Shown: in pieces, positions 1 to 64,000 of the stretch
Layout: the number at the start of each line of letters is the position of its first letter
How positions within the stretch are numbered: position 1 is the first letter of the stretch
Assembly (NCBI GenBank): GCA_051883555.1
Contig: JBJETY010000036.1
Coordinates: 3,671 to 67,670 of the forward strand
DNA length: 64,000 bases
Source of the DNA: Christensenellales bacterium
GTDB taxonomy: Bacteria; Bacillota; Clostridia; Christensenellales; CAG-917
Direction of reading: 5' to 3'
Notes under the pieces: model-generated
The model's input: only the letters and a program-made list of their open reading frames with translations
Database searches by the model: none
Told to the model about the DNA's origin: nothing
Translations under genes and position numbers: made by a program

Positions 1-161
1 ACGCTGAAATCAGCTTTTCCCGTTATCGTTGCTCCGTTTTCTTTTAATGCCGCAACGTGCGCTTTGTTCCTGTTGACAAGGTCTACGTTTTCGCCGCTTT
101 GTGCAAGGTAAGCTCCAAGTACCGTACCAAGTGAACCTGCTCCGTAAATGCAAACTTTCAT
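1..161 (-). CDS. 2-dehydropantoate 2-reductase (PanE/ApbA family), N-terminal fragment cut by window edge
   Basis: Hand translation of the reverse complement from ATG at 161 gives MKVCIYGAGSLGTVLGAYLAQSGENVDLVNRNKAHVAALKENGATITGKADFS. GxGxxG Rossmann N-terminus typical of ketopantoate reductases. AAGGAG SD at 167-172. Absent from the ORF track because it is truncated. Confidence 0.55.
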   Translation of the reverse strand, partial: MKVCIYGAGSLGTVLGAYLAQSGENVDLVNRNKAHVAALKENGATITGKADFS

Positions 162-597
162 TTCCGCTCCTTTTACTTGTGATTTAAACACAACGTATTT
201 AATTCTGTTTGAATATATTTTAATTGTCCGCAAATATTGATTTAAATACCTGACCGACAAAACGGCAAAATCAAATTGATTGCGATTTTATCTGCGTTTT
301 CCGTCAACCACGTTACGTCCATTATAAAACCTATCCGTTTTAAAATCAAATAAATATACTAAAAACATAATATTGCCTATCCCGCAAACGAAACTTAACC
401 GCCAATAAAATAATAAGCACCGCGTTTTGCTATTCGCGGTTTCATAAAATGATATAAAAATAAATTGACCGCATTATAAATCGAATTTAACAATGCATAA
501 ATATAAGTATTTTAAATACCGAATTAAATATAACTAAGTATCATAAATATTAAATAGCACAAAAAATAAAACCGCCAGATATAGGCGATTTTATTTA

Positions 598-673
598 TGG
601 AGCTGCTAACGAGACTTGAACTCGTGACCTCGTCCTTACCAAGGACGTGCTCTACCGACTGAGCCATAGCAGC
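598..673 (-). tRNA. tRNA-Thr (anticodon GGT), CCA encoded
   Basis: Reverse complement folds as a full 76-nt cloverleaf: acceptor GCTGCTA/TAGCAGC, D arm GCTC-AGTCGGTA-GAGC, anticodon arm CGTCC-TTGGTAA-GGACG, T arm ACGAG-TTCAAGT-CTCGT, then T-CCA. Confidence 0.95.
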
Positions 674-700
674 GTTTGTAGCTTTGCTCAAAGCTACATA

Positions 701-729
701 ATTATATATTAGCTAAAAACAATTGTCAA
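701..729 (-). promoter_or_regulatory. Consensus sigma-A promoter for tRNA-Thr
   Basis: Minus strand reads TTGACA (729-724), 17-nt spacer, TATAAT (706-701). A small leader hairpin GTAGCTTTG-ctc-AAAGCTAC (677-696) lies between the promoter and the tRNA 5' end. Confidence 0.6.
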
Positions 730-782
730 CCGTTTAAGTTGTGCATTAAATCAAATTTATGCTTATAACTTAATTAGGCATA

Positions 783-5781: not shown

Positions 5782-5782
5782 A

Positions 5783-11429: not shown

Positions 11430-12872
11430 TTATTTTGCCGTCGTCAGAAACTTGGACGCCTGCAAAACAGGAACGACTCCGTGTTTTTCCGTAACCGTCA
11501 CAAGGTCCATGCTCTCTTCGATTCCGTTGCGAATGTACGCTTTCTTTTTGCCCGTTGAATCGTATCCCCACGTCCAAAAAGACGCATAACCGCTTCCGGA
11601 AGAAAATGCCACGCCTTTGGCTTTTGCATAATCGGTAGCCGTCAAAGATAAATTTTCCGCTTCCGTATATCCGGGTATCAAAGTCTTTCCTTCAATCGGG
11701 TCTCTATTTATATCGTAAGAAATAAAACTTTCAAGCGTAGCCAACTGAGCAGAATCTAAAGCTTCTTCAATCAGTCCGGCGACAAAATCGGAAAGCGTGC
11801 TGTCTGAATATCTGTTCGGTGTAAGGCCGCTTCCGCTAGTATCCGTTTCGCTGATATTGAATTGTTCGCAGTCGATAACGCTGTCCGCTATAAGCTTTTT
11901 GTTCGTCACGTTCCATTTAAGCGGTTGAATTTTATAATACTTTGAATCGTATTTTTTATAATACCAACCGTCCGAACCTAAGTAATATCCTTTTGAATCG
12001 GTTACGGAAGTTATCGTCACGCCGTCTTCTTTGAGCGACTTCGGATATGCGCCGAATAAATAACTGCTTCCGCTTACGTTGTTGACCGCCTTATCGCAAT
12101 AATCGTAATAGTCGTCTTTGCCTACTTTAAGGCCGTCGCTCCACGTTGCGGTCACCGTTATATCGGCAGCTCTCGAAGTGTCTATTTCGGTGACGGTACC
12201 CCCTGCATATTTATAACCTCTGAAAAATCTTCCGTAATAGCCTTTTGGCGCAACCAAAGTTATAGGTGCGTCTAAAACGGTAAACTCCGTTACTCCGTCC
12301 ACCGTTGCTCCGTTAAGATTCGAATAAGTCAGTTTATAAGTTACTACATCATAATCGAGCCAAATCGTCGTATCGGATAACATGCGCGCGTCGGCGGAAA
12401 GCTCTTCCGTTTTTGCTTCGTCATAATAACGCCCTACAACCTTATATCCTTTTTTATATATGGATATGCGTGCTAATTCGGCGTTTTCGTCAACCGTTTT
12501 AATTTCGCTCTCGTCGCTGCCTATTACTTTAAGTTCAAGAGAGTATACTTTTATCATCTTGCCGTAAAAGGTCATAGATTGATTCGCTATGGTCATCGGG
12601 TCTAATAGTCCGTCTGCTTCCGACGACTCCAAACTGCTTTCGCTGTCAAACCAACCGCTGAAACGATAACCCTCTTTTTGCACTTCAGGGATACTTCCGC
12701 CTAAACCGAAACCTTTCGTAAGATTTACCGTTTTATACGACTCGCCATCCAAAACGAATTCGATTTCTACCTGCTCAGGTTTATCGGTTTCGTCTCCGCT
12801 GCCGCATGCAGCGCACAGCGTTACGATTAATAATGACAAAACTATAAGGCATAATAATTTGAACTTTTTCAT
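11430..12872 (-). CDS. Secreted lipoprotein with Listeria-Bacteroides (Flg_new-type) repeats and a C-terminal domain of unknown function
   Basis: Signal peptide plus lipobox (LCAACGSG). Repeat signatures YRFSGWFD and GYKVVGRYYDE. C-terminal YYKIQPLKWNV motif resembles the IEWRVL-type domain common in Firmicute surface proteins. Confidence 0.75.
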   Translation of the reverse strand: MKKFKLLCLIVLSLLIVTLCAACGSGDETDKPEQVEIEFVLDGESYKTVNLTKGFGLGGSIPEVQKEGYRFSGWFDSESSLESSEADGLLDPMTIANQSMTFYGKMIKVYSLELKVIGSDESEIKTVDENAELARISIYKKGYKVVGRYYDEAKTEELSADARMLSDTTIWLDYDVVTYKLTYSNLNGATVDGVTEFTVLDAPITLVAPKGYYGRFFRGYKYAGGTVTEIDTSRAADITVTATWSDGLKVGKDDYYDYCDKAVNNVSGSSYLFGAYPKSLKEDGVTITSVTDSKGYYLGSDGWYYKKYDSKYYKIQPLKWNVTNKKLIADSVIDCEQFNISETDTSGSGLTPNRYSDSTLSDFVAGLIEEALDSAQLATLESFISYDINRDPIEGKTLIPGYTEAENLSLTATDYAKAKGVAFSSGSGYASFWTWGYDSTGKKKAYIRNGIEESMDLVTVTEKHGVVPVLQASKFLTTAK

Positions 12873-12930: not shown

Positions 12931-13100
12931 ATTGATTTATATTATATAGGTTCATATTGTATATTAGACTTTATCAATTTATGTTTTACGGATTTATATT
13001 TTATCGATTTACGTTGTTTAGATTTATGTTTTTCTGATTTAAATTATATCGAATTATATTCTACGGATTTATGTTTACGGTTTTATAAATTTATTTTTTA
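12931..13100. repeat. Degenerate tandem repeat array (about 14-16 bp units, core GATTTAT)
   Basis: acggatttatatttt / atcgatttacgttgttt / agatttatgttttt / ctgatttaaattat / acggatttatgttt and similar units, read directly from the sequence. Confidence 0.7.
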
Positions 13101-13222
13101 CATATTTTACACGACAGTAAGAATATATCCCTAAAACTATAAATCCCGTAAGGCTATAAAAATTTATTGATAAACGGCTGTCCGATTAAATAACAACGGC
13201 GGCAATCGCCGCCGTTAATTAG

Positions 13223-17861: not shown

Positions 17862-18192
17862 ATAATCTCGCCTCCCTTTTACTTTTTTAATTCCATTTCC
17901 GTTTTTTTCTTTTTAATATTTAATTTCGTCACGCAAGTTCAATAAATTTCGGTTATCTATTTTTTATGCAATTCTTATAAATCGTTATCCATTATTCTGT
18001 CGCCGTCTCCGTATCGTAAATATTTAAATCAAACGACGTCTGCTATAGTTCATGTCGAATAACGCTTATTTATATTTCCGTTCCTTTGCTAAAATTTCCG
18101 TCTTTTTGCTAATATGTCCGTTTTTTGGGTATAAGAAAACCGCCCCCCTTAAGGCCTTTCCATCTCGGATAAATTCAGCATTGTTGTGGAAA

Positions 18193-18828
18193 CTAAATGA
18201 ATTCTTCCATAGACAAGACAAATTGTTTATAAAACTCGTCTACGTCTTCGGCAGATTTAAGCACTCCTGTTGCATATCCTTTCAGTGCTTTGTCGAAAAG
18301 ACGAATATACTTTCCTATACCGTTTGAGATGTAACTTATGTTAAATTCAATCCCCGGCGGCAAAGCAAACGTCCTCTGAAATTTGTTATCTTCATAAACG
18401 TAGCCTATTACGTTTTTACAATACTTGCTTTCTACTGCCATCCATATTTTTATAAATTCGTCTATCCTGACCGTAAGTTCTCCCGACGTCGTACGCCACT
18501 GAACCTTCAACGTTCCCAAGTCGCTCTCGGGAGTTTTGGAAAGCTCGAGTTCGTATTTTACGGTAGGTCTGTATTTATAGTCGAGCGAAGTTTTTAAAGC
18601 CATAGACCTGCTGTTTGACGGGAGCAACGCTTCAAAATACCCGCCGATAAGTTTATCTATGCCGGCAAATATATTTCTCATTTGCTGTTCCGGAGTTTCA
18701 ACTTGCAAATACTCAGCCAGAATTTCGTTTATCAAACTACTTCTGTTTGTTCCACGTTTAACCGCTTCGCCGTCTACTGCCGCAACAACTTTATCGGATA
18801 AAATCAAGCTATACAACGATTTACTCAT
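18193..18828 (-). CDS. Hypothetical protein with N-terminal ribbon-helix-helix (CopG/Arc-like) motif
   Basis: N-terminus ...AVKRGTNRSSLINEILAEYL is RHH-like. The remaining 160 aa or so are unrecognised. AAGGAGG SD. Monocistronic. Confidence 0.6.
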   Translation of the reverse strand: MSKSLYSLILSDKVVAAVDGEAVKRGTNRSSLINEILAEYLQVETPEQQMRNIFAGIDKLIGGYFEALLPSNSRSMALKTSLDYKYRPTVKYELELSKTPESDLGTLKVQWRTTSGELTVRIDEFIKIWMAVESKYCKNVIGYVYEDNKFQRTFALPPGIEFNISYISNGIGKYIRLFDKALKGYATGVLKSAEDVDEFYKQFVLSMEEFI

Positions 18829-20860: not shown

Positions 20861-20890
20861 AAAAAGGAGTGCAAACGCACTCCTTTTTTA
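20861..20890. terminator. Bidirectional intrinsic terminator
   Basis: AAAAAGGAGTGC-aaac-GCACTCCTTTTTT. Confidence 0.85.
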
Positions 20891-20899
20891 TTTGATTTC

Positions 20900-20952
20900 T
20901 TATGACGATTTATTTCCTTTTGACGATGTATTTCCTTTATGACTTTTATTTC
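20900..20952. repeat. 3 x 18-bp degenerate tandem repeat
   Basis: ttatgacgatttatttcc / ttttgacgatgtatttcc / tttatgacttttatttc. Confidence 0.7.
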
Positions 20953-22232
20953 TTTTCAAGTTTTTCCTGCCACTTGGAAATCTTTACGACGTCGTATTTT
21001 TCAGGAATTTTTAAAGCAGTTTTCTTTGCCTTTAACGCTTTTACAAGAATCGGAATAAGCGGTTTTAAAAGTTTAAAATTCTTTAACGCCAACTTAATTT
21101 TGCCTCTGACGAAACCTTTTGGCAATTCGGCGTCCTGAGAAGTGGATAAAGCGTTGAAATCTTCACTCGTTATTATTCCGCTTGCAAAAACCTTATTTAC
21201 GTAATCGGCGTCCAAAAGTTCCAATGCCGCATTTTTTAAGCGGTCTATAAGAACGAAATCGCCGCCGATTTGCTTATAATAGTCGTATTCATACGCCCAA
21301 AGAGCGTCAATGCCGCAACCGCGTTTTATCACGTTATCCGACAAAATCGCACCGGCTTTCATTGCCGATTCGATACCGCTGCCCATAAGCGGCATAGGCA
21401 TAAACGCACTGTCTCCGACTGCCGCATAACCTTTTACGACGAATATCGGAAGCGAACATCTCGTGCAGATAGTCACGTGCTTCGAGCGCAATTCTTTTCC
21501 GTTTAAAAATTCGTATCTACCTTTCAAATCGCTCATGGCTTTTTCTTCCGCTTCCGACGACAATCCGCCGAATCGGGCTATAAGCAAATCGCCTTCACCT
21601 TCCGCTCCGTAATTGCACCACGATATTCCCTTTTCGCCGTTGTGAAATAAAATCAATTCACAAGGCACTTCGGGTTTATCCGAGTTGTAATCGTAGAACG
21701 CTCTGAAAGCACCGAGAAAATCGTTTTCGCGTTTTTTATATTTTAAAAGTCCAAGCCCTACAAGTTCTTCGCGTAAAACCGAATCTCTTCCGCTTGCGTC
21801 AATGACAAGATCGCAATAAATTTCTTTACTGCCTGCCTTTATTCCTACAACCTCGTTTCCTTCTACGCACAGACTGCCGACCTCTTTTCCCACGTTTACT
21901 GCTACACCTTTTTCGGTAGCAAGGTCGATAAGATACTTAGCAAACTTTCTGCGGTTTACAGAAATTTCATCTTTAGGCTTTGGCAACACGATATTGCTTT
22001 TAAAATCAGGCGAAATAAAGCGCCATTGCTTTTTAGGCTCATAACAGCTTTCCGGCGGACAAGGTATACCGGTTTTGTCGAAGACTTCGAGCATTATATC
22101 GTCATACCAATCATAACTTACGTCCGACAGATTATTCTTTTCATAAAGCGATACTTCGTTGCCCGCTTCAGCAAGTTTTATCGCAGCTACAAGACCGCCG
22201 TGTCCCGCACCGACTATCACAATTTTTGCCAT
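20946..22232 (-). CDS. FAD-dependent oxidoreductase (geranylgeranyl-reductase-like family)
   Basis: N-terminal dinucleotide fold IVIVGAGHGGLVAAIKLAEAG...YEK. 428 aa. Confidence 0.8.
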   Translation of the reverse strand: MAKIVIVGAGHGGLVAAIKLAEAGNEVSLYEKNNLSDVSYDWYDDIMLEVFDKTGIPCPPESCYEPKKQWRFISPDFKSNIVLPKPKDEISVNRRKFAKYLIDLATEKGVAVNVGKEVGSLCVEGNEVVGIKAGSKEIYCDLVIDASGRDSVLREELVGLGLLKYKKRENDFLGAFRAFYDYNSDKPEVPCELILFHNGEKGISWCNYGAEGEGDLLIARFGGLSSEAEEKAMSDLKGRYEFLNGKELRSKHVTICTRCSLPIFVVKGYAAVGDSAFMPMPLMGSGIESAMKAGAILSDNVIKRGCGIDALWAYEYDYYKQIGGDFVLIDRLKNAALELLDADYVNKVFASGIITSEDFNALSTSQDAELPKGFVRGKIKLALKNFKLLKPLIPILVKALKAKKTALKIPEKYDVVKISKWQEKLEKK

Positions 22233-23418: not shown

Positions 23419-23450
23419 AAAACACCTCGATAATTTTAACTTAAATTTGC

Positions 23451-23510
23451 GTTAATTCAATTTTAGTTAATTCAATTTTAGTTAATCTAATTTGAGTTAA
23501 TCTAATTTGA
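23451..23510. repeat. 4 x 15-bp tandem repeat
   Basis: gttaattcaatttta x2 followed by gttaatctaatttga x2, head to tail. Confidence 0.85.
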
Positions 23511-23827
23511 GCTGAAATTAGATTCTAAATTAAACTCTATACGTTTAAGTGCAACTATCGTACGACCTTAAACCGTTTCATTTTTTATCGTACTTTTCCA
23601 TTTAAATTGCCGGAATAAATTTTTGCTCGATTTTAACCGATTTCAAATCGGCACCGTTTATAATATCATATATCATTTTACGTTTAAAATCAATACGCAA
23701 ACGCAAAGGCTTATAACTCGCAACGATTTATGACGCGCCACTCCGACAAAAAAACAAAAGACAACGCCGTTGCGTTGCCTAACTTATTTTGCCTGTCATC
23801 TTAAATTGTCGACTTATACTAATAATT

Positions 23828-26593
23828 CTATATGTTTAGTCTAAGATATTCCTTAAACGCGTCAAACGTTATAGGTACGGCTATGTAAAATCCCTGAAGC
23901 ACGTCGCAACCGATACATTCCAAAAATTCAGCCTGTTGTTTTGTTTCGACGCCTTCCGCCACAACGCTTATTCCCAGCGTTTTTGCCAATACGGTAATAG
24001 TGCTGATTATCGTTTTACTTGCTTCTCCGCCCGACGACGAAAAGCCGATAAAGTTCCTTGAAATCTTAAGCTCCGACACCTTTAACTCGTTTAAAACCGC
24101 AAGCGACGAATTTGCCGTGCCGAAATCGTCAAGAGCTACTCTTATGCCGTTATCTTCCAGCGCCTTTATGGTTTTTGACAGAGTTCTGAAACTTTTACAT
24201 TCACCTCGTTCCGTTATCTCGATGGTAAAAGATATATTTTCTTTTGCCGTTTCTTTAAGGCTTAAAACCGTCTTAATATAATCGTGGCTGACAAAAGTCG
24301 AGACCGCCTGATTGATGCTTAAACAAACTTTTCCATAGCTTTCCAGTTCGGCAGAACGTTTAAACGCTTTTTTCAATACGTATAAATCAAATTCCTTCAT
24401 AAGAGAATTTTTTTCGAGAAGCGGAATAAACACGTTAGGCATAACGAGTCCGAACGTAGGGCTATTCCATCTTGTAAGCACTTCACCGCCCAAATCGTTT
24501 TTTTTGCAATACTTATATGGCTGTACGTAAACCTCAAATTCGTCGTTAACAATTGCGGCAATAAGGATCTCTTTCACCTTTGAAGGCAAACATTTTTTTT
24601 CGCTTGCAGCGTATTCTTCATCATCTAAGATAAGCGTTCTTATGTCAATGCTGTCGTACACGGTAAAGGACGCGCCCTTTTTCTTTTTCGATTCGTAAAG
24701 AGCGTTATCGGCACATTGATAAAGTTCGTCGAACGTGTCCCCGTCTTTCGGACGAAGTGCAACCCCTATGCTGATTGACGTTTCCACGCCTTTTTCTACG
24801 GTAGATTGTGTAATCGTTTTTATAATTCTTCTTGCAAGCACAGATACTTCGTTGTCCATTTTAAGGCCTGCAAGATATACGCAGAATTCATCGCCGCCGA
24901 ATCGTGAAACGGCTTTGACGAAAGGACATATAGAGTTGAGACTCTTTAAAGCGTCTGCAACTGCCATAAGCACTCTGTCACCCGTCATATGACCGAAACT
25001 GTCGTTAATATTTTTAAAATTATCTATATCGATAAGCATCAACGCGTCGACCGTATTCGCTTCAACTTTAAGTTCTGAAACCTTGTAGGAAAAAGTTTCA
25101 CGGTTATAAAGTTTGGTCATACCGTCCGTCTGCGCTTTGTCTTTTAACTCCTCTCTTTCAATATGCCCTGCCGTTACGTCCTCGACAATTCCTATAAAGC
25201 AATCTTTTTCCTTAGACGTCTCGAAAATAAAATTCGCAGTGATTTTAAAATATTTTTTCAATCTTTCGCAATAAAATTCATATTCGAAAATTTCGTTATC
25301 GGCAAGCGAATTGAAAATGGTTGTAATGTTATCTATATCATCCGCACTGAGATAATTAAGTTCAACCAATTTATCCATTTTATACTCCGTAGAATCAAGT
25401 CCTAAAAGATTTTTGGTTATCTCACTGCAATATACGACGTCGTTTTTCAAGTCGTATTCAAAAGTATATCTTTTAAGCAATTCAAAAACAATTTTTGACT
25501 TTTGTATTTCCTTATGTTTCTCATGCTTTAAGTAACTGATCAGCAACGCTATTACAACTACGATAACCGCCATAAATACGCTGACCATAATCATAACTTT
25601 TTTAGAAAAATCAATATATTTATGTGCGTACGCTTCTATCTTAGCATTTTCTACAAGCGTTACAAGCACCCAATTCTGCGCTATTTCATCGCTAAAGCCT
25701 TCAATATTTCTTGTTACGGCATAATAGTCGCCCCCGCTAAGGCTCACTTCGGTTATTGCGTCGCCTATATCGGGCAGCAGCGCCAACTCTTCATCCGTTA
25801 TACCCGAGTCGGTAGTTACCACTGAAACTTCATCGCCGCGTTTATTAATCAACGCATAATTTGCATAATTATCGCTCATTAGCTTTATCAGCAGTTTATT
25901 GATTTTTTCTATAACGTATCCGATAAAAATGACGCCGACAACGGTTTCTGCACTTTTGATAGGCGCAAATACTACGAAACTTTCTTCACCCGTTATTGCA
26001 GATTTTGCGGTAGAAAAAATACAATTCTCGCCGTTCAAAGATTTTTGAAATTCGCTGAGAAAAGAAATATTGAGGATCCTTGCTCCGTAAGACGTTCCGT
26101 CCGACACGTAGTCGTTTAAATAGCAATTGCCCTCAACGTTAGCAATTTGAATATAATTCAAATCTTTTTCACGGCTATAAGATTCTATGACGTTTTCTAC
26201 CTCAGAGATGACTTTAACGTTTTTAACAGTAATTTCTTTGTCGGAACCGACTTCTTTAACGGTCGTTTCGGAATTGTTAAAAATATTCCCTCCCGCCACG
26301 TCATACAACAAAGCAGACAAAGTGTTAATTTCAGAGATTAATTCGGAAAAATAAGTTTCTATTGCAATTTCGTTTGAATCGCTAAGACCTTTTACGTCGT
26401 TAAAAATTCTTTCCTTTTCCGTCTTGTAAATAAACTTTCCCAATTCGCTGGGCATGACGATAACTATCGTCATACTAATAGCGATAAGAATAATACCGAT
26501 TATATAAAATATGTTTTTATGTTTAAGTTTAATCATAACTACCCGATAAATAATCTCGTTATTTAAATCTAAATGCGGAATTTTGATTGACAA
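23828..26593 (-). CDS. Membrane sensor diguanylate cyclase/phosphodiesterase (Cache-like periplasmic domain, PAS-like, GGDEF, EAL)
   Basis: GGDEF motif (RFGGDEFCVY). EAL-domain motifs EVLTRW, DDFGTANSS and EGVETKQQ. Two TM segments flank an extracytoplasmic domain. The true start is possibly M20 at 26536. Confidence 0.9.
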   Translation of the reverse strand: MSIKIPHLDLNNEIIYRVVMIKLKHKNIFYIIGIILIAISMTIVIVMPSELGKFIYKTEKERIFNDVKGLSDSNEIAIETYFSELISEINTLSALLYDVAGGNIFNNSETTVKEVGSDKEITVKNVKVISEVENVIESYSREKDLNYIQIANVEGNCYLNDYVSDGTSYGARILNISFLSEFQKSLNGENCIFSTAKSAITGEESFVVFAPIKSAETVVGVIFIGYVIEKINKLLIKLMSDNYANYALINKRGDEVSVVTTDSGITDEELALLPDIGDAITEVSLSGGDYYAVTRNIEGFSDEIAQNWVLVTLVENAKIEAYAHKYIDFSKKVMIMVSVFMAVIVVVIALLISYLKHEKHKEIQKSKIVFELLKRYTFEYDLKNDVVYCSEITKNLLGLDSTEYKMDKLVELNYLSADDIDNITTIFNSLADNEIFEYEFYCERLKKYFKITANFIFETSKEKDCFIGIVEDVTAGHIEREELKDKAQTDGMTKLYNRETFSYKVSELKVEANTVDALMLIDIDNFKNINDSFGHMTGDRVLMAVADALKSLNSICPFVKAVSRFGGDEFCVYLAGLKMDNEVSVLARRIIKTITQSTVEKGVETSISIGVALRPKDGDTFDELYQCADNALYESKKKKGASFTVYDSIDIRTLILDDEEYAASEKKCLPSKVKEILIAAIVNDEFEVYVQPYKYCKKNDLGGEVLTRWNSPTFGLVMPNVFIPLLEKNSLMKEFDLYVLKKAFKRSAELESYGKVCLSINQAVSTFVSHDYIKTVLSLKETAKENISFTIEITERGECKSFRTLSKTIKALEDNGIRVALDDFGTANSSLAVLNELKVSELKISRNFIGFSSSGGEASKTIISTITVLAKTLGISVVAEGVETKQQAEFLECIGCDVLQGFYIAVPITFDAFKEYLRLNI

Positions 26594-26761
26594 TCATATA
26601 AGACGCATGCCACTATACGCTTCTGCTAACCACGTACAGCCGTATCGATATTTTCTTTAAAATTTTATCTTTGGTAGAAATCAAATCAAACCGTCTTAAG
26701 TATAAAAAAATATAAACAAAACGCACAAAGTGCATATTTAAAATGTTATATTTACTTTAAC

Positions 26762-26800
26762 AAAAAAAAGTTGATTATGCAAGCATAATCAACTAAAATT
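26762..26800 (-). terminator. Intrinsic terminator ending the ksgA-downstream gene pair
   Basis: AGTTGATTATGC-aa-GCATAATCAACT, with a T run on the minus strand. Confidence 0.8.
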
Positions 26801-26918
26801 CTATAATATTCGACACTTTTTGCAAAGCGGTTTCATTTACCATTTCTCAGAATTTTATTTTGACAATTTATTTTCGGACGGCAAACTCTACCCGCTTTGT
26901 GTGTACAGTCCTTTAACA

Positions 26919-27668
26919 TTAGTACAAAGAATAGTTATATAATCTGGTATATATTTTACTCTTCTCTACGTTTACAAAATCAACCACCCTGAATTCATCG
27001 CCGACAAGTTCCATAATCACAAAGAAATCGCTGTATATAAACCCCATGTAAGTTTCATATTCCGGTCTTTGCTGCCTGCGGTATTGCATAGCGGATTTAA
27101 AGGACAAATTTACGAGTCTTGCTATTTCTTTAACCGCAGCGTTAAATTCTATCGGATATTTAAAATAAAATTCATGCGGATAATACAACAATAAATTCTT
27201 TTTAAAATCCAACTTCTGCAAAAATACTTTTATATCCGATTCCGCAACGGTCAACGGCGAAGTAGATTCCATAAGAATATTCAACTCCGCAAGACTGTAT
27301 TTTAAAAGAGCAATATGCAAAACTGTGCAAATAAGATTTTTATCGCTTTTCGGCGGAGTAGTCATAAATTTACCCTGTTTCCCCAAAAGCTCGGTTTGGT
27401 CGGACAAAAGGCTCAACGCTCTAAGCCTTGTCTGGCTTGCCGTCAGTTTAAAGTCCAGCCCGTACGAACCTGCATAACAGTCGCATTCGCCATGGGCCTC
27501 GCTGTTCGGACGAACGAACGGCTTAAAACCTACCCGTTCTCTTAAAAACATAGACGAGTTGACAAATTCGACCATATATAATTCATAATTACATTCGCTG
27601 TCGCCCTTAACGCTTCCTTTTATAAGTACCTGCGACGGCAACAAACGATAGTGTAAACGCTTGTCCAT
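26919..27668 (-). CDS. Hypothetical protein (249 aa), no family recognised
   Basis: Long ORF with native-looking codon usage, its own promoter and a terminator. No SD before the ATG. A possible nuclease-like E..CD-x9-DFK motif is speculative. Confidence 0.6.
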   Translation of the reverse strand: MDKRLHYRLLPSQVLIKGSVKGDSECNYELYMVEFVNSSMFLRERVGFKPFVRPNSEAHGECDCYAGSYGLDFKLTASQTRLRALSLLSDQTELLGKQGKFMTTPPKSDKNLICTVLHIALLKYSLAELNILMESTSPLTVAESDIKVFLQKLDFKKNLLLYYPHEFYFKYPIEFNAAVKEIARLVNLSFKSAMQYRRQQRPEYETYMGFIYSDFFVIMELVGDEFRVVDFVNVEKSKIYTRLYNYSLY

Positions 27669-27674
27669 ATTTTT

Positions 27675-27703: not shown

Positions 27704-27705
27704 TA

Positions 27706-28755: not shown

Positions 28756-28757
28756 AA

Positions 28758-35561: not shown

Positions 35562-35563
35562 CC

Positions 35564-39651: not shown

Positions 39652-39914
39652 ATAAAAACCTCCCTGATTAAAATTAGTATTTTATTCGGAAAGAAAAAAA
39701 TTCATTTTTTTGCAATTTGCGATTTGCCTTACGCTCATAACGTAACGTATTTCAAACGCAAACGGGAAATAAAGAAATATAAATATAAGTTAAACGCAAA
39801 ATAATCATACCGAACAATACTTATCGAACAGTACTTATCGAATAAAGCTTTTCAAATAAAAAAAGAAGCGTACGCTTCTTTTTTACGTTAATTAAACAAA
39901 TTGATTTATCGTTT

Positions 39915-40160
39915 GCAAAGTGTTTTAAATCATCAAAGTGATTTTAAACTGCAAAGTCTTTGCATCGGCAACGTGTTTTACAGCATTAAATTTTTTGACG
40001 CTAGCAAAGCTATTTTAAATCGACAAAGCTATTTTTAATTTACAAGGCTGTTATCAATTAATAAAGCTATTTTGAATTGACAAGACTATTATAAATTAAC
40101 ATAGCTGTTATCAATTAAGAAAGCTGTTTAAAACTGCAAAGTCGATTTTATAAAATACCA
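39915..40160. repeat. About 12 copies of a 17-24-bp degenerate tandem repeat (core CAAAGCTATTTTAAAT)
   Basis: gcaaagtgttttaaatcat / caaagtgattttaaact / gcaaagctattttaaatcga / caaagctatttttaattta / caaggctgttatcaattaat / and further units. Confidence 0.8.
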
Positions 40161-44273: not shown

Positions 44274-44462
44274 AAAATAGATTTTTATGCAACAAAATTT
44301 ATATTGCAAATAAAATGTTTTTATAAATAAAATATTGTGAATAAAAAATATTGTTAATAGCAAATAAAAATATTGCAAATAGTAAATAGAAATATTGTTA
44401 ATAGAAATTATTTAAATAAGATTTAAATAAAATTTAAGATTTAAATAAAATTTATTTAAACA

Positions 44463-46297: not shown

Positions 46298-46313
46298 TAA
46301 AAATCTTTGTCAA
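46285..46313 (-). promoter_or_regulatory. Putative extended -10 promoter of the transketolase operon
   Basis: Minus strand reads TTGACA (46313-46308), 17 nt, TGaTAGACT (-10 at 46290-46285). Confidence 0.45.
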
Positions 46314-46416
46314 CGAAATGACCTTTTATAAGCTAAAATTAAAAAATAAAACAAAGCGGAAATAATAAAAACAATCCGATTAAGAGCAGTTCCCATAGAG
46401 AATGTAGACTTATGAT

Positions 46417-46451
46417 AAAAAAATCTCGGTTATCTTATCCGAGATTTTTTT
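46417..46451 (-). terminator. Intrinsic terminator after the 73-aa/165-aa cassette
   Basis: ATCTCGG-ttatcttat-CCGAGAT flanked by A7 and T7 runs. Confidence 0.8.
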
Positions 46452-46501
46452 ATTTTCAATTCACTTACATAATTTTTTCTTGGTATACATAATGACACCT
46501 A

Positions 46502-46999
46502 TTATTTATGCAATGTGCTAAACATAATAGCTGTGGATGCAGCGACTGATGCGCTATGTTGTATTGCGTTGACAAGCTCCATATTTCTTATATTTTCTAA
46601 TTTCTGCTTGTAAAATTCTTTCTCGTCATTGCTCATATCATCACATTTCAAATAATTTAAATATAAGTTTTTAATTTGCGGCAAAAAATTCCTTGGTCCT
46701 TTTTTTATGGCTCTACGCCCACCCAGGTTCATCAAAAGTATAAAAAAAACACCTAACCCAAGCGAGCCTATACCATATACTTTTTCAAATAGCGCACCTA
46801 TAGGTTCCCTTTCATATCCCGAAAAGGTGATTTCAGGCGGGGTGGTAAAACCAATAATCATCAAAATAAGACCAACTACAATTAAAAGCGAGCCAATAAT
46901 ATTCCAAATTAAAATTGCTTTTTTTGCCTTCATTATATGTTGTTCTCGACAATTTTCCACTTCATGATAATATTGATTTTCGGCTTCTTTAATCGTCAT
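46502..46999 (-). CDS. Hypothetical two-TM membrane protein (165 aa)
   Basis: Strong SD GGGAGGA lies 8 nt upstream. Two hydrophobic helices (ILIWNIIGSLLIVVGLILMIIGF and IGSLGLGVFFILLMNL). The start overlaps the upstream ORF by 11 nt. Base composition is visibly AT-richer and CG-poorer than the neighbouring genes. Confidence 0.65.
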   Translation of the reverse strand: MTIKEAENQYYHEVENCREQHIMKAKKAILIWNIIGSLLIVVGLILMIIGFTTPPEITFSGYEREPIGALFEKVYGIGSLGLGVFFILLMNLGGRRAIKKGPRNFLPQIKNLYLNYLKCDDMSNDEKEFYKQKLENIRNMELVNAIQHSASVAASTAIMFSTLHK

Positions 47000-47210
47000 T
47001 GTTTATATCCTCCCAATCTTTCTTTGTCTGTCTTTTTTTGATTGCTTTTGTGAATTTACTAAAAGAATGTTCTTTTGTAGATTTCAAAATACCTTTCTTA
47101 TTTGATGTCTTAAATCCCGTTGATGTCTCTTTGTCGCAAATCTCCATATACTCGCTTAAATGTATCAGAGCGTAGGCAATATCGTCAGTACTGATTTTTT
47201 CATGTTTCAT
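46989..47210 (-). CDS. Hypothetical small basic protein (73 aa)
   Basis: AGAGG SD 8 nt upstream. Translationally coupled to the 165-aa gene. No family recognised. Confidence 0.55.
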   Translation of the reverse strand: MKHEKISTDDIAYALIHLSEYMEICDKETSTGFKTSNKKGILKSTKEHSFSKFTKAIKKRQTKKDWEDINNDD

Positions 47211-47434
47211 TTATTTTTACCTCTGTAAAATAAAAAGTGCGCCTACCGAAGTAAACGCACAAAAAACGCAAACTCCGATAGTCGCCAAACCAACTGAAAA
47301 GCAAGAACAAATCTACGCTATATCCAGTACGAATTTGCATTTTTATCAAATTCATTATGGACATAACGCAAAAAGAATATAATTACCTCAAAAGATAAAA
47401 ATAGTCCTTGCCTAATTTATTCAGTTGGTTTGGC
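47211..47434 (-). ncRNA. Unclassified structured 5' leader (riboswitch/attenuator-like) of the 73-aa/165-aa cassette
   Basis: The predicted TSS G47434 starts a 15-nt arm (47434-47420) that is perfectly complementary to 47298-47284 and encloses 121 nt. A UUCG-capped terminator (47260-47237), a U tract, the SD and the ATG follow. Confidence 0.5.
47231..47260 (-). terminator. Leader terminator/attenuator hairpin with UUCG tetraloop
   Basis: Minus strand reads GUGCGUUUAC-UUCG-GUAGGCGCAC (10 bp including two G-U pairs), followed by UUUUUAUUUU. It lies 26 nt before the ATG at 47210. Confidence 0.7.
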
Positions 47435-47440
47435 ATAATT

Positions 47441-47469
47441 ATTATATCACATATAAAATATTTTATCAA
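47441..47469 (-). promoter_or_regulatory. Extended -10 sigma-A promoter of the leader
   Basis: Minus strand reads TTGATA (47469-47464), 17 nt, TGaTATAAT (-10 at 47446-47441). Confidence 0.6.
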
Positions 47470-47492
47470 GTAGTTTTTAGTGGACAAAAGAA

Positions 47493-47517
47493 AACTCGAC
47501 TTAAAAAAAGTCGAGTT
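47493..47517 (-). terminator. Intrinsic terminator ending the yxjI-like transcript
   Basis: AACTCGAC-ttaaaaaaa-GTCGAGTT, followed on the minus strand by TTTCTTTTG. Confidence 0.6.
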
Positions 47518-47544
47518 GTAATTAAAGTGATATTGTTTGAATTG

Positions 47545-47720
47545 TAAACAGTTATATTTTTAGAGTAGTCTAAAAGTTATATTTTGACTTGCAGTCAAAG
47601 TTATATTAAATAAATCCTTAACTTGCCGATAGGCAATATAACTTGCGAAAGCAAATGTCAAAATCCGTTTACGGATTTATTTAGTTGCCGAATCCCTTGT
47701 AGGGACTCGGTTAAGTTGGA
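47545..47720. repeat. Array of six short hairpins interleaved with a phased 9-mer (AGTTATATT x3 direct, x1 inverted)
   Basis: The 9-mer occurs at 47550, 47575 and 47599, with an inverted copy at 47635. The hairpins are tttaga/tctaaa, ttgact/agtcaa, ttgcc-gata-ggcaa, ttgc-gaaa-gcaa, aaatccg-ttta-cggattt and ccgaatccc-ttgta-gggactcgg. Confidence 0.7.
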
Positions 47721-47787
47721 TTGTTTTTGTCGTTTGATTTAGCGTTCGCAAAAAAATGCTGTCCTAGCCGTATCGAAACGCTTATTA

Positions 47788-48321
47788 TTAATGGCTTTGA
47801 TGATGCAACGTATCGATCAACAAACCGATTATAAGAAGATAATGTTTCGGAACGGATTCGTTAAGAATCTCCACTTTATACGTATCTGCGATTTTGAAAA
47901 CCTTTTTATTGACTTTTGCTATAAGTCTTTCCTCTTTAGGAAGCGACTTGTCCTTAATCTTCCAATTGAATCCGATAAAGCTGCCGGTTATTCTGAGTTT
48001 ATGCTCGACTCCGTTTTCGTCGACGTATTCAAGATAGCCTCTGCGCCTTAAAGGCATATGGAAACCTTCTTTGAATCTGGCAATCGGATTGCTCGCTTTG
48101 TTCTCTGCGATATATCCTTCTGCTATGTCGAATTTAGCAAAAATAAAGGATATTCTCGATACTACCGTAAGAATAGGATTGCCTTGCGGGTCGGAAATTA
48201 TGAATTTCTTATGGAAAAACGTCCATTCGCTTCTTACTAAATATTGAACGGTATCATGCTCGTCTAAAATAGAATAATTTTCGAGGACTGACCAAAATTT
48301 TTGTTTGATATAAAGTTCCAT
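47788..48321 (-). CDS. LURP-one-related / YxjI-like (tubby C-terminal-like fold) protein
   Basis: 177 aa. The N-terminus LYIKQKFWSVLENYSILDE and overall pattern match the YxjI/DUF567 family. Confidence 0.75.
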   Translation of the reverse strand: MELYIKQKFWSVLENYSILDEHDTVQYLVRSEWTFFHKKFIISDPQGNPILTVVSRISFIFAKFDIAEGYIAENKASNPIARFKEGFHMPLRRRGYLEYVDENGVEHKLRITGSFIGFNWKIKDKSLPKEERLIAKVNKKVFKIADTYKVEILNESVPKHYLLIIGLLIDTLHHQSH

Positions 48322-48591
48322 TTTCTCTCCTCCTGAAAACTTATATATTCAGTATATCATAGCGCTAGCGATTATTCAATACGCAACGCAAAAAAAAAAT
48401 AAAAATTATTAAATAATATAAATAGATTAAGTGATTAAATTATATTAAGCGATTGAAACTTATAAATGCGTTAAACAATATGCGATTAAACAAATTATAA
48501 ATGCTTTAAGCAATAACAAACGATTAAACAAATTATAAATGCGTTAAATATTAAGCAATTAAACTAAAACATTAAATGAAAACCGTTGAAT

Positions 48592-50275: not shown

Positions 50276-50328
50276 ACGATACCCCGAATTTTACGTAATT
50301 TAAGATTTTTAATTAACGATTTAAAATT

Positions 50329-50376
50329 CACTATTTTAAATTTACGATTTTACACTATTTTAAATTTACGATTTTA
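50329..50376. repeat. Perfect 2 x 24-bp tandem duplication inside the folate operon
   Basis: cactattttaaatttacgatttta occurs at 50329-50352 and again at 50353-50376. Degenerate copies lie upstream. Confidence 0.9.
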
Positions 50377-50424
50377 AATTGATATTTCAATTAAAGCCGT
50401 ATTCAATTGTTTGCGCAACCGTTT

Positions 50425-57312: not shown

Positions 57313-57454
57313 AAATCAATAATAGTTTAAACCAAAACAACGCTTCAGGCTTTAAACAAGGCTTTTAGCGGCTTATCGTAAAATAGTTTTAAAAACAAAT
57401 TTTACGCAAATTTTTTTGCAAATACCGCATTAAACGTGCGATATAAAATAAATA

Positions 57455-57568
57455 TACGCTGGGGGTGACGGCTTGCCGTCTGAGATTAAACCCTTTGAAC
57501 TTGATTGAGTTGGAACTCACGAAAGGAAGCATTCAGTCCTCGATGGTTTTCCACGAGGACTTTTCTTT
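57455..57568 (+). promoter_or_regulatory. TPP (THI-box) riboswitch with intrinsic terminator expression platform
   Basis: CTGGGGGTGACGG...CCGTCTGAGA...ACCCTTTGAACTTGAT...GGAACTCACGAAAGGAAGC matches the TPP aptamer core. The terminator GTCCTCG-...-CGAGGAC plus TTTTCTTT lies at 57536-57568. Confidence 0.9.
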
Positions 57569-58885: not shown

Positions 58886-59118
58886 CTTGTCTTAACTATT
58901 TATAAACACGTAAAACTTTTTAATTAAACTACAAACCATTTAAGCAAATCGCAACCTCTTTAATTAAATCACGAAGTTAGCGTCAACGTCATCGACCGAA
59001 AAAATAATAGCTTCGTTTATTCAATCGCATTATTTATTCCATAGCTTTGTTTATTCCTTTGTTTATTCCATAGCTTTGTTTATTCAGTCTGCTATTCTAC
59101 TCCCGAGTGTAAATTCAA

Positions 59119-60418: not shown

Positions 60419-60779
60419 TCAACTAACCTCTGTTTTATGCGTACGATTACTTGCGTTGCGACGACTCTTACGCCGTCTTAACGCTTACAAATTAAATAAT
60501 TTTTTAGATAATCTCTAAATTTATTAAATAATTTTCTCAACGGTTTTAAGTATTATATAATAAAAGAATTTCCTAAGCAAGCGTTTAAATTTTACGACAA
60601 TCAAAATATTTTCGTCAGAATGCCGTCGCCGTTATATATACCCGTCGATTTTATAAAAAAATTAACTTTTAAACAAATTTAAATTTTATTTAATATTCAG
60701 ATGATAACGTTTATACGGATATATAGATAGCTTTAAAACAAAATATTATATATAAAAATTCCGATGGGAAACAGATTTA

Positions 60780-60808
60780 TTGACACGCAAATTTTTTAAT
60801 ATTATAAT
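60780..60808 (+). promoter_or_regulatory. Consensus sigma-A promoter upstream of the ABC transporter gene
   Basis: TTGACA (60780-60785), 17 nt, TATAAT (60803-60808). This leaves a leader of about 255 nt. Confidence 0.6.
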
Positions 60809-61070
60809 AACTTATCAATTTAAAGTTGATTATCATATTAAATCGTTTAACGCATTACGTGAACAGAATATTTTCATCGCCGTTTAGCGTGGCATACGTT
60901 TACAGAATATAAATCTATTCTCAACTTCTCGGCTTTATCAAAATCGTACAAGACGGAAAGGCCTTCGATGCGTATGCAGTTATTCGTTATATTACAAAGA
61001 CTCGATTTCGTGCAGATAAATTATCAAACCGTTCAACAACCCCACTCAACAAACTCTCGACAGGTGAAAA

Positions 61071-63836
61071 ATGCTTAAATTAAAAAACGTTAAAAAAGAC
61101 TATCTTTTGCAAGACAATTGCGTACATGCTTTAAAAGGTATCGATTTAACTTTCCGCAAAAACGAATTTGCTTCCATTTTAGGTCCGTCAGGCTGCGGAA
61201 AAACGACCACGCTCAACATTATCGGCGGACTTGACAGTTATACCGACGGCGACCTGATTATCGACGACACGTCGACAAAGGACTATAAATCCCGCGACTG
61301 GGATACTTACCGCAACCAAAAAATCGGTTTTATATTCCAAAGTTACAATCTTATACCGCATCTTACCGTACTTGCAAACGTCGAACTTGCGCTTACAATC
61401 TCGGGCATAAGCAGAAAAGAAAAAAGACAGATGGCTGTCGAAGCGTTGGAAAGAGTCGGCTTAAAAGAACAGATAAATAAAAAGCCTACACAGATGTCGG
61501 GCGGACAGATGCAACGAGTTGCCATTGCAAGAGCTATCGTAAACAATCCCGATATAATTTTAGCAGACGAACCGACGGGCGCTCTCGACAGCGTAACAAG
61601 CGTGCAGATTATGGATATTTTGAAAGAATTGTCCGAAGAAAAGCTTGTTATTATGGTTACGCATAATGCAGAACTCGCTAAAGAGTATTCGACAAGAATT
61701 ATTCGCCTTTTGGACGGCGAAATTCTGTCCGACTCGAATCCGCCGACAGATGAAGAAATCGCAAACGAAAAAATCGTCGAAGAAAAGTCTGAAGAAGAAT
61801 TCATAAACAAAACCGATTACGACGTAACGGATAAGGTCGCTTTCGACGAAAAAGAAAATTCGTCCGAAAAAGGCGATACGACGGCAAAAACAAAAAAACC
61901 GAAAAGCGGAAGAAAAAAGAAATCGTCTATGAATTTCTTTACCGCTCTTTCGCTTAGCGCAAGAAACCTTGTCACAAAAAAGCTCCGCACTTTCCTTACG
62001 ATTTTTGCAGGTAGCATTGGTATAATCGGCATAGCGTTGGTTCTTTCGTTGTCAAACGGCTTTACCCTTTATATGCAGGATATGGAACAGACAACGCTCA
62101 GCAGTTTCCCCGTCACGATAAGTGAAATCGGTTTTTCATTCGATATGGAAGCGGCGCAGAACGCCACTATCAAAGAAGGCTCTTATCCGTCGGACAACAA
62201 ATTAGTCCCTTACGACCCAAGCGATGAAATGGGCGGAATGAGTTTCTTTACAAACAGAATGACAACCGAATACGTCGATTACGTCAAGGCTATGGAAGAA
62301 CAGAATCCCGACTGGGCTGCAAGCGTGTCTTATAAACGCCTTGTGGAAATGCACCTTATAGCAAAAACGTCGTCGGGCGGTTATAAACTTGTCGACAACT
62401 ATTCGGAAGAAAAACAGATCTGGTGGCAGGAACTTTTAAGCGATAATTTCGTGCAGGACTATTATGATATAATCGACGGCCGTTATCCGCAAAATAAATT
62501 CGAAGCCGTCCTTGTCGTCGATTCGAACAACCGCATAAAAGCGGACGTCCTGAAAGCTATCGGAATCACCCCAACGACAATCGGAACAAACGACGACGGA
62601 ACGGTGAAGTACGGCAGCATCGATTTTTCCGATTTAATATCGACGGAAGGAAACGATAAACTTAAATTCCGCCTTGTTTTAAACGACGATTACTATACCA
62701 AAACTGCCGAAGACGGATATTACGTTGAAATGACGCAAGCAAATTATGAAAGCGCATATAACAATGCAAGCGGCGATTTTATTAAAATCGTAGGCGTCAT
62801 AAGAAACAAACAAAATAAAGATATCAGTTTCTTTAACGGCGGAATAGGCTATCTTTCAAGTCTTACGGATTACGTATTGGAAGATTCGGCAAGCTCGACA
62901 ATCGTTATCGAGCAGACAAACAACTTCACAGACCTTCTCGACCCGTCCAAAAAGGAATTTACTTTCGATTTTTCGGAATTCGATAAAATGATAACTCAAT
63001 CGGGCGTTCCGATTAAAACAGTTGCAACAATGATGAAGGGCTACGGTTTAATCACTAACGAACAGTACAACGAAATACAAAACGATCCCAACCTCAATTT
63101 TGAAATGATTTTCGAAAAAATCAAAAGCAACAAAGGTTCGACAGAACAAGCCGTATCTGCACTCTGCGACGTTATGGCAAACTTTATAAGTATCGACAAG
63201 AACACAATCCTTTCCGTTATATGCCCTGACTATGCAACAAGAATTTCGGAAATAGGCGCTTCTTCTATGCCAAGTTCGATATCGATATATCCGTCGTCTT
63301 ACGAAACGAAAAAGCAGATACTTTCATATCTCGATAAATATAACGAAGATAAAGAAGAAAAGGATCAGATACGCTATACCGACCTTGCGTCAACTATTAC
63401 CGACAGCATGTCTGAAATGATTGATATCATATCTTACGTCCTTATCGCGTTTGCGGCGATTTCGCTCTTCGTTTCGTCTATCATGATTGCAATAATCACA
63501 TATATATCCGTTCTCGAAAGGACGAAAGAAATAGGCGTACTGCGAAGCCTGGGAGCAAGAAAAATCGATATATCAAACGTGTTCAATGCAGAAACCATGA
63601 TAATAGGAGCTTCCAGCGGAGTATTAGGCGTGTGCATAGCGGCGATTTTAAACTTCCCTATCAATGCCATAATCACTAAACTCGCCGGCGGTTTAGTGGA
63701 AAACATAGCCAGACTCTCACCGCTTCACGGCATATTGCTCGTGCTTTTAAGTATCGCCTTAACCGTTATATCAGGTTTCATTCCGGCAATAATAGCGTCT
63801 AAAAAAGACCCTGTGGTCGCACTCAGAGCTAATTGA
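61071..63836 (+). CDS. Fused ABC transporter ATPase + FtsX/MacB-type permease
   Basis: Walker A GPSGCGKTT, signature MSGGQMQR, Walker B ILADEPTGALD, a K/E-rich linker, a large extracytoplasmic domain and a C-terminal FtsX 3-TM bundle. 921 aa. Confidence 0.9.
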   Translation: MLKLKNVKKDYLLQDNCVHALKGIDLTFRKNEFASILGPSGCGKTTTLNIIGGLDSYTDGDLIIDDTSTKDYKSRDWDTYRNQKIGFIFQSYNLIPHLTVLANVELALTISGISRKEKRQMAVEALERVGLKEQINKKPTQMSGGQMQRVAIARAIVNNPDIILADEPTGALDSVTSVQIMDILKELSEEKLVIMVTHNAELAKEYSTRIIRLLDGEILSDSNPPTDEEIANEKIVEEKSEEEFINKTDYDVTDKVAFDEKENSSEKGDTTAKTKKPKSGRKKKSSMNFFTALSLSARNLVTKKLRTFLTIFAGSIGIIGIALVLSLSNGFTLYMQDMEQTTLSSFPVTISEIGFSFDMEAAQNATIKEGSYPSDNKLVPYDPSDEMGGMSFFTNRMTTEYVDYVKAMEEQNPDWAASVSYKRLVEMHLIAKTSSGGYKLVDNYSEEKQIWWQELLSDNFVQDYYDIIDGRYPQNKFEAVLVVDSNNRIKADVLKAIGITPTTIGTNDDGTVKYGSIDFSDLISTEGNDKLKFRLVLNDDYYTKTAEDGYYVEMTQANYESAYNNASGDFIKIVGVIRNKQNKDISFFNGGIGYLSSLTDYVLEDSASSTIVIEQTNNFTDLLDPSKKEFTFDFSEFDKMITQSGVPIKTVATMMKGYGLITNEQYNEIQNDPNLNFEMIFEKIKSNKGSTEQAVSALCDVMANFISIDKNTILSVICPDYATRISEIGASSMPSSISIYPSSYETKKQILSYLDKYNEDKEEKDQIRYTDLASTITDSMSEMIDIISYVLIAFAAISLFVSSIMIAIITYISVLERTKEIGVLRSLGARKIDISNVFNAETMIIGASSGVLGVCIAAILNFPINAIITKLAGGLVENIARLSPLHGILLVLLSIALTVISGFIPAIIASKKDPVVALRAN

Positions 63837-63860
63837 TTTTCCGTGCATATATTAGTATAA

Positions 63861-64000
63861 GTTTAAACGCTAACTAATCTGAATGCTCACGCCTGTTTTA
63901 GCTTATGCTCGTTTATATACCGACTAATACAAACGCTCACGATTGTTTAGCTTATATGCGTTTAAACGCTAACCAATCTGAATACTCACGCTTCTTAGCT
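63861..64000. repeat. About 3 copies of a 49-bp degenerate tandem repeat (runs off the window)
   Basis: gtttaaacgctaactaatctgaatgctcacgc at 63861-63892 is nearly identical to 63960-63991 (2 mismatches). A diverged copy lies between them. Confidence 0.8.

Follow-up and report, generated by a model that had tools for sequence, protein, structure and literature searches.

Short tandem arrays, each built from a unit of its own, occur throughout the intergenic DNA of a Christensenellales bacterium at a density well above chance and above that of other Bacillota. In this study, these arrays were analyzed in a window of 64,000 nucleotides (the whole stretch given above: positions 3,671 to 67,670 of contig JBJETY010000036.1, assembly GCA_051883555.1; G000:C36:3671-67670), in the 1.49-Mb genome of which the window is a part, and in conspecific strains and relatives. 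The high density was confirmed, and the arrays keep clear of promoter and terminator zones, gather at the 3' ends of genes, are poorly conserved between sister species and account for a growth of intergenic DNA that rises stepwise towards this genome within its clade. They are probably the outcome of a neutral birth and death of local tandem duplications, which would be retained in the unconstrained spacers of a weakly purging lineage.

The genome is a fragmented metagenome-assembled genome (MAG) of 86 contigs, with a G+C content (GC) of 39.5% and an estimated completeness of 95.9%. The proteins of the window, such as RNase J1, an SpoVB-like protein, a DnaD-domain protein, ClpB and MetRS, point to Bacillota/Clostridia, and the nearest public MetRS loci come from MAGs of uncultured gut Clostridia and Christensenellales (Hadza and other human or animal gut samples); the genomes of the family are uniformly small (1.1-2.2 Mb). 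Genes were modelled as greedy, non-overlapping open reading frames (ORFs) of at least 80 amino acids (aa), a crude model that was used for every comparator as well. Arrays were called with Tandem Repeats Finder (TRF) at a period of at least 7 and a score of at least 50. For comparison, 76 loci from diverse Bacillota were used, each about 20 kb long and 1.23 Mb in total, with one outlier locus from a termite-gut MAG left out. The relatives are represented by samples of 40-370 kb from each of 18 and not by whole genomes, and related genomes are non-independent data points.

Density against chance and against other Bacillota

Under this gene model, the whole genome has a coding density of 83%, compared with about 90% in the comparators, and intergenic DNA of 29% GC with a median spacer of 198 bp, in agreement with the first-pass annotation of the window, which had described the spacers as unusually long. 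All 12 repeat loci listed in that annotation coincide with TRF arrays, and three were also read directly in the sequence. Over the whole genome, 383 arrays are intergenic and 74 are coding, corresponding to 1.54 and 0.06 per kb, respectively (a 25-fold intergenic enrichment), and they take up 11.1% of intergenic bases versus 0.44% of coding bases. The trait was expected to be genome-wide and not confined to the window, as was indeed found: 87% of the 20-kb chunks of the genome exceed 5% intergenic repeat content, versus 7% of the comparator loci.

The 364 arrays observed in spacers of at least 50 bp were compared with five null models, over which the excess ranges from 6- to 60-fold. Markov models of orders 1, 3 and 5 and shuffles of whole spacers produced 6-18 arrays, shuffles inside blocks of 30 or 60 bp produced 29-37, and a simulation of all spacer DNA from the arrays' own trinucleotide statistics (21% GC) produced 45-61. 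With relaxed TRF penalties, the coverage rises to 31-34% of intergenic bases versus 10-13% in shuffles, and about one-fifth of the spacer DNA is therefore detectably repeat-derived. Arrays are present in 67-76% of spacers of at least 400 bp, in 32-48% of those of 200-400 bp and in 1-14% of those shorter than 200 bp. The proposal that most spacers consist of repeats thus stands in so far as long spacers usually hold arrays, but it was overstated, the arrays making up 11% of intergenic bases (under relaxed penalties, about 20% in excess of the shuffles). Conspecific contigs from other samples and assemblers (Logan and ENA; 95-100% identical) have 11.5% of their intergenic bases in arrays and 1.87 arrays per kb; the density recurs in independent assemblies and is therefore no artefact of the MAG.

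In the 76 Bacillota loci, 1.1% of intergenic bases are in arrays (0.24 arrays per kb), the subset with AT-rich spacers giving the same result, and the genome exceeds these loci about 6.5-fold by arrays and about tenfold by bases. At the level of the species the density is 1.5-1.9 arrays per kb of intergenic DNA, which is well above both shuffled sequence and typical Clostridia. A gradient is seen within the clade: the density is 1.07 arrays per kb in the nearest species (G005, mean aa identity 89%), where arrays cover 7.9% of intergenic bases, 0.68-0.90 in the other congeners, 0.55-0.68 in the nearer members of the family, 0-0.32 in its farther members and 0-0.51 in other families of the order. 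AT-richness alone is not predictive, the spacers of three genomes (G014, G020 and G024) having 26-31% GC and only 0.1-0.3 arrays per kb. A SATFIND-like count, in which an exact 10-mer must occur at least four times with regular spacing, gave about 15 loci per Mb; a prokaryote-wide survey of satellites gives medians of 0-3 per Mb, with 18 of 119 bacteria above 4 per Mb (PMC6749651). As a separate observation, locus L020 from a termite-gut Clostridiales MAG (JAISNN010000047.1) has 27% of its intergenic and 10% of its coding bases in tandem repeats, and represents either another repeat-rich lineage or a large repeat region.

Anatomy, placement and turnover of the arrays

The median array is 52 bp long with 2.3 copies, and a few arrays extend to 629 bp. 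Periods are mostly 12-25 bp and reach 294 bp; between about 7 and 40 bp they grade broadly into one another without a preferred unit length, a mode at 13-22 bp under the standard score threshold being partly a detection floor. At a lower score threshold, the excess of periods over shuffles spans about 7 to 25 bp. The arrays have 21% GC, compared with 30% in the remaining spacer DNA, and are non-coding, as had been assumed, the period being a multiple of three in 35% of them, which is the chance level. Selection for curvature, which the first-pass annotation had offered as a possible cause, receives no support from the periods: 20.5% are within 0.1 turn of whole helical turns (about 10.5, 21 and 31.5 bp) versus 20% expected, and an identity of the arrays as intrinsically curved or phased A-tract DNA was rejected on the same figures.

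The units are specific to their loci. A match at another place in the genome exists for only 29 of the 383 arrays, these matches being AT-only and of low complexity, and the other 354 are without similar sequence, which bears out the earlier view that each locus uses a different unit and that the repeats are not of the repetitive extragenic palindromic/bacterial interspersed mosaic element (REP/BIME) type. Nor do the units share a vocabulary, since every GC-containing 7-mer is limited to at most 7% of them and only AT-rich oligomers recur. In the arrays examined, the units are degenerate and abut head-to-tail without spacers, and are thus not CRISPR repeats, as had likewise been stated (cas genes were not searched for). 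Higher-order periods of two or three units are carried by 55 arrays (in the window, 15/30/45 and 19/38/57 bp), and the identity between units is graded continuously, from 100% in 40 arrays down to less than 70%; this combination is what local duplication, repeated and then overlaid by decay, leaves behind. Folding was compared with shuffles for six arrays of the window. Four fold no better, and the other two, 40005-40150 and 23444-23511 (minus strand), form long predicted hairpins that are significantly better than those of shuffles (z of -3.5 and -3.1), owing to a partial self-complementarity of their units.

The fraction of repeats is 3% in the 50 bp 5' of start codons, 6% in the 50 bp after stop codons and 10-17% beyond 100 bp. 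Of those arrays of the window that were checked against a terminator scan, most were found just beyond predicted intrinsic terminators; the array at 30427-30481 is an exception, being located just before its predicted terminator. The spacer classes differ in length. The median convergent spacer is 332 bp here versus 68 bp in the 76 Bacillota loci, and the median tandem spacer is 166 bp versus 57 bp, while divergent spacers have medians of 197 and 182 bp, respectively. Promoter-bearing spacers are therefore of the usual length, and the least functional spacers have grown about five-fold. The convergent median climbs stepwise from 90 bp in the order to 125 bp in the family, 196 bp in the genus and 332 bp in the present genome, and convergent spacers are the class richest in arrays, with 14.5% of their bases in arrays and 53% of them carrying one.

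Comparison with sister species ties this growth to the arrays. The window is collinear with the sister species G003 between 21.1 and 44.3 kb, a stretch in which G003 is without any TRF array. The spacer 3' of ksgA is 523 bp in the window and 76 bp in G003, the spacer upstream of the spoVT-like gene, with the arrays at 39914-40150, is 543 bp (about 531 bp in the comparison with G003) versus about 118 bp, and two further array-bearing spacers are 414 versus 208 bp and about 400 versus 261 bp. Over 111 orthologous adjacent gene pairs shared with G003, array-bearing spacers are longer here by 169 bp and the others by 7 bp; over 204 pairs shared with G005, the differences are +100 and -9 bp. The arrays therefore account for the intergenic growth, array-free spacers being nearly unchanged. 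Selection for spacer length, the other cause that had been put forward, is not supported either, as orthologous spacers differ by +100 to +169 bp where an array is present. Furthermore, arrays occur in 20 spacers only here, in 15 only in G005 and in 11 in both, and array bases are the least conserved intergenic DNA between the two: only 7% of them can be aligned with the G005 ortholog of their spacer, compared with 33% of other intergenic bases. The G005 spacer between folE and folP (L200:10360-10561, orthologous to window 50276-50424) contains a 112-bp duplication of 1.8 copies (90% match) that is unrelated to the 14/24-bp repeats of the window in that spacer.

Differences of the size of a unit were also found between strains. 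In strain contig L121 (95% identical), the 30427-30481 array is short of exactly one 15-bp unit, and L139 (98%) bears a perfect 25-bp duplication. In the spacer at 35167-35563, the conspecific strain L148 (about 99% coding identity) is 68 bp shorter owing to several indels of 6-24 bp, and one 13-bp insert by which the two differ scores as a tandem duplicate with 85% match; among the strain indels, the 13- and 15-bp inserts are 80-85% tandem duplicates. The higher-order periods, the continuum of identity from 100% to less than 70%, these unit-sized indels and the unrelated arrays in a sister spacer together uphold the local duplication origin suggested in the first-pass annotation. Fifteen of the 21 spacers compared are within 2 bp of equal length among conspecific strains. 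Duplication does take place, though slowly when set against the divergence of strains, and the loci are not hypermutable in the manner of contingency loci.

Two side observations were made on the strain contigs. Comparison of window 26278-33111 with L121 (a strain at about 95%) showed a divergence of 0-0.2% in ksgA and half of its downstream spacer, of 2-7% in the neighbouring genes and of 9-12% in the other spacers, a mosaic suggesting that strains have recently recombined. Two conspecific contigs have non-coding stretches 1.4-1.6 kb or so in length (L139:3561-5151 and L214:10121-11495), adjoining a giant GH94 gene and a methyltransferase gene; that in L214 shows only small TRF arrays.

Origin of the arrays

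Under neutral birth and death, short AT-rich stretches of spacer, mostly of about 8-25 bp and occasionally of up to a few hundred, would be duplicated head-to-tail by replication slippage or by unequal exchange between nearby copies. Some multi-unit blocks would be duplicated again, and the copies would then decay by point mutation. The products would be kept only in function-free DNA, i.e. beyond terminators, at the 3' ends of genes and more than 100 bp from start codons, and the non-functional spacers would grow as a result, the convergent ones to about five times their usual length; the array sequence itself would not be under selection. The cause would be weak purging, whether by drift or by reduced deletion pressure in a host-associated lineage with a small genome, and not a raised mutation rate. 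Of this account, the excess over chance, the placement of the arrays, their lack of conservation, the growth of the spacers and the gradient within the clade are observed, and the slippage mechanism and weak purging are inferred.

Several points weigh against this explanation. At the level of strains the evidence for duplication is thin: most spacers are identical in length in strains at up to 2% divergence, with few copy-number events at 1-5%, and only three of 18 indels of at least 6 bp are clean tandem duplications, versus 5% at random positions. A rise in slippage specific to DNA of 21% GC would leave coding repeats unchanged just as differential retention does, and a few arrays could have gained a role, given that two of six fold better than shuffles. 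In addition, the DNA counted as intergenic under the 80-aa gene model takes in small genes and non-coding RNAs.

The nearest alternative is a mutational signature of the lineage, in which a peculiarity of replication or repair in the clade raises the input of short tandem duplications. A graded density limited to the clade is what a heritable change of this kind would give, the failure of AT-richness alone as a predictor (G014, G020 and G024) is in its favour, and newborn perfect duplications are present in the form of the 40 arrays at 100% match. Two candidate changes, however, were rejected. A link with mismatch repair, which the first-pass annotation had proposed to check, seemed at first sight to be offered by the MAG, in which profile searches did not find MutS1 (TIGR01070) or MutL (TIGR00585); all five congeners, and nearly all of 30 relatives, have mutS and mutL next to each other. 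A 28-kb block of G003 (G003:C4:40000-68125), which holds ribF, plsY, miaA, mutL, mutS, miaB, a PBP1A gene and a giant GH94 gene, has no counterpart in the present assembly, and the flanking synteny halts precisely where contigs C83 and C11 end, so that the absence of mutS-mutL is an assembly or binning gap. Contig L139, which is 98.3% identical to C11, reaches further, as far as the GH94 gene, and shares with L145 an overlap of 94.8% identity. An intact miaB-mutS-mutL-miaA arrangement is found in L145 and also in L146/L214 (mutS of 864 aa and mutL of 676-677 aa), the latter from contigs whose sample and coverage are those of L139 and L148. An exact look-up of the YlxQ-like protein at the C83 end gave no match, and one of MiaA returned only the already known contig. 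Strains from the samples of L139, L148, L146 and L214 share the arrays of the window, and the arrays thus coexist with an intact mutS-mutL pair in the same species; loss of mismatch repair was rejected as their cause. Caution is needed over gene absences in such MAGs, since a call of 'no mismatch repair' from this one would be wrong. Loss of the Pol I 5'-flap nuclease was likewise rejected, as all 31 genomes searched have the 5'-nuclease domain. The in-frame coding arrays, which number 73 per Mb here versus 77-99 per Mb in relatives and other Bacillota, argue against a global rise in the rate of duplication and for differential retention in spacers, and between strains that diverge by 1-2% the arrays mostly stay the same. 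A mutational signature is therefore considered to be unlikely.

Less likely still is functional padding, in which selection favours sequence-agnostic DNA at the 3' ends of genes and duplication merely supplies the length; the roles proposed are separation of convergent units, absorption of read-through or supercoiling and binding of AT-preferring nucleoid proteins. The concentration of the expansion in convergent spacers while divergent ones keep their usual length, the lower GC of the arrays (21% versus 30% in other spacer DNA) and the ability of some of them to form long hairpins are in favour of such roles. However, spacer length is not conserved across sister-species orthologs, the presence of an array is idiosyncratic by spacer and by species, the periods show no helical phasing and arrays are present within operon spacers too, such as that of folE-folP; survival of insertions at any place where they disrupt no function would produce exactly this pattern. 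That the arrays are chance low-complexity matches in AT-rich DNA, or artefacts of MAG assembly, is extremely improbable and was refuted: they are short and very AT-rich and the genome is a fragmented MAG, but simulation at their own composition falls far short of the number observed, identical arrays recur in other samples that were assembled independently (Logan and ENA), and degenerate copies with point differences are not assembler products.

A bolder idea, to which we give a small chance, is that the genus may have a heritable, sequence-agnostic tendency to generate or to keep short tandem duplications in untranscribed, AT-rich DNA at the 3' ends of genes, caused either by an undescribed peculiarity of replication or repair beyond MutS/MutL and the Pol I flap nuclease or by selected padding of convergent units. 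If true, the genus would be a tractable natural model of bacterial intergenic DNA growing against the usual deletion bias. Neutral birth and death under weak purging nevertheless remains the explanation that we consider to be probable.

Window features and relation to known repeat systems

The arrays located in the window are collected in Table 1. Apart from them, an Rfam scan of the window returned a tRNA-Thr and a thiamine pyrophosphate (TPP) riboswitch and nothing else. On this outcome, and on the four of six arrays whose folding does not surpass that of shuffles, structured RNA was rejected as a reading of the arrays. The riboswitch (RF00059, 61.7 bits) is at 57451-57544 (+), 5' of the gene at 57.5-58.8 kb, and the GTG start assigned to that region by the ORF finder (57465) sits within it and is probably not the true start. 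At window 46298-47790, between the transketolase genes and the LOR-family gene, the conspecific contig L153 (SRR27361823) is without about 1.2 kb, which make up a two-gene cassette (ORFs of 73 and 165 aa plus their leader), and the species is therefore polymorphic for the presence of this cassette.

Table 1. Tandem arrays and array-bearing spacers of the window (window coordinates)
Position	Array	Context	Basis
12970-13087	Degenerate, 15-bp unit x7.4, with 30- and 45-bp higher-order periods	Downstream of terminator 13194-13217, upstream of gene 11430-12872(-)	TRF, sequence
18072-18126	20-bp unit x2.8	Flanked by the stop of gene 18193-18828(-) and by the promoter region of clpB	TRF
20890-20956	18-bp unit x3.7	Convergent spacer, directly after terminator 20861-20888	TRF
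23436-23539	15/30-bp unit x4.5 (23444-23511, 90% match) and an adjoining 12-bp pair	Downstream of predicted terminator 23759-23780	TRF
28958-29218	Six adjacent short arrays, units of 14-16 bp	523-bp spacer 3' of ksgA	TRF, sequence
30427-30481	15/16-bp unit x3.5		TRF
34375-34458	36-bp unit x2.4	Tandem (+/+) spacer	TRF
35167-35563	Small arrays	Spacer after the dus terminator	TRF, strain alignment
39914-40150	18-bp unit x3.8; 19/38/57-bp unit x7.7 (40005-40150)	Upstream of spoVT-like gene	TRF, sequence
44324-44460	Overlapping 15/16/22-bp arrays and a perfect 18-bp pair	Convergent spacer	TRF
48394-48583	17/18-bp array and 35-bp unit x3.4	Between LOR-family gene and folB-folK	TRF
50297-50380	14-bp unit x6.3 with a perfect 24-bp x2 duplication (50329-50376, 100% match)	folE-folP spacer	TRF
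58913-59097	20-bp unit x3 and 17/29-bp unit x4.9	Convergent spacer	TRF
63861-63990	49-bp unit x2.6	After MacB-like ABC transporter gene	TRF

Deletion bias and selection usually hold bacterial genomes to a compact size, and lineages in which the growth of spacers is visible are rare and useful for asking what determines intergenic length. Here, the growth can be localised to convergent and tandem spacers as opposed to promoter-bearing ones, can be traced to its source in local duplications that differ by spacer and by species, and can be followed along a phylogenetic gradient of uncultured human and animal gut Clostridia. The arrays are also candidate strain-typing markers for the species, and they probably contribute to the fragmented assemblies of the clade.

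The first-pass annotation knew of no description of such repeats as a genome-wide trait. A published precedent is nevertheless provided by Ehrlichia ruminantium, for which PMC10710844 (citing Collins et al. 2005, PNAS, and Frutos et al. 2006, J Bacteriol) describes intergenic regions that are long and in which non-coding tandem repeats expand and contract, together with a coding density of about 64%, and satellites have been surveyed across prokaryotes (PMC6749651). The two cases have in common a small host-associated genome (about 1.3-1.5 Mb), unusually long intergenic regions, many unrelated non-coding repeats throughout the genome and differences in spacer length that are tied to the repeats. 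The trait is much milder here: arrays take up about 2% of the genome, the coding density is about 83% versus about 64%, and the units are mostly 13-25 bp in 2-4 copies; the copy number is mostly stable between close strains, unlike the E. ruminantium repeats, which that source describes as actively variable. Furthermore, the present organism belongs to a Christensenellales-like gut lineage of the Bacillota that is not obligately intracellular as far as is known.

Long simple-sequence repeats, with units of 5-11 nt, were reportedly the subject of work by Mrazek et al. in 2007. They resemble the present arrays in the lineage-wide filling of spacers by tandem repeats; however, no preferred unit length or shared word is found here. 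Repeats of the REP/BIME, BOX and miniature inverted-repeat transposable element (MITE) types are similar in being intergenic and often near the 3' ends of genes, but they are dispersed families with a shared, usually palindromic consensus, whereas 354 of the 383 arrays here are unmatched. A further likeness is to bacterial minisatellites, or variable number tandem repeats, and satellites (Subirana & Messeguer, 2019; PMC6749651), which are head-to-tail, have units of at least 10 bp and are mostly locus-unique, short and intergenic. Most of the present arrays, with two or three degenerate copies, would not qualify as satellites in that survey, and what stands out is how many small arrays there are and how they affect the length of spacers, rather than any single hypervariable locus. 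The arrays are ordinary locus-unique bacterial minisatellites at an unusually high density; the trait is of a known kind, and what is new is the lineage, the gradient within its clade and the roughly five-fold growth of the convergent spacers.

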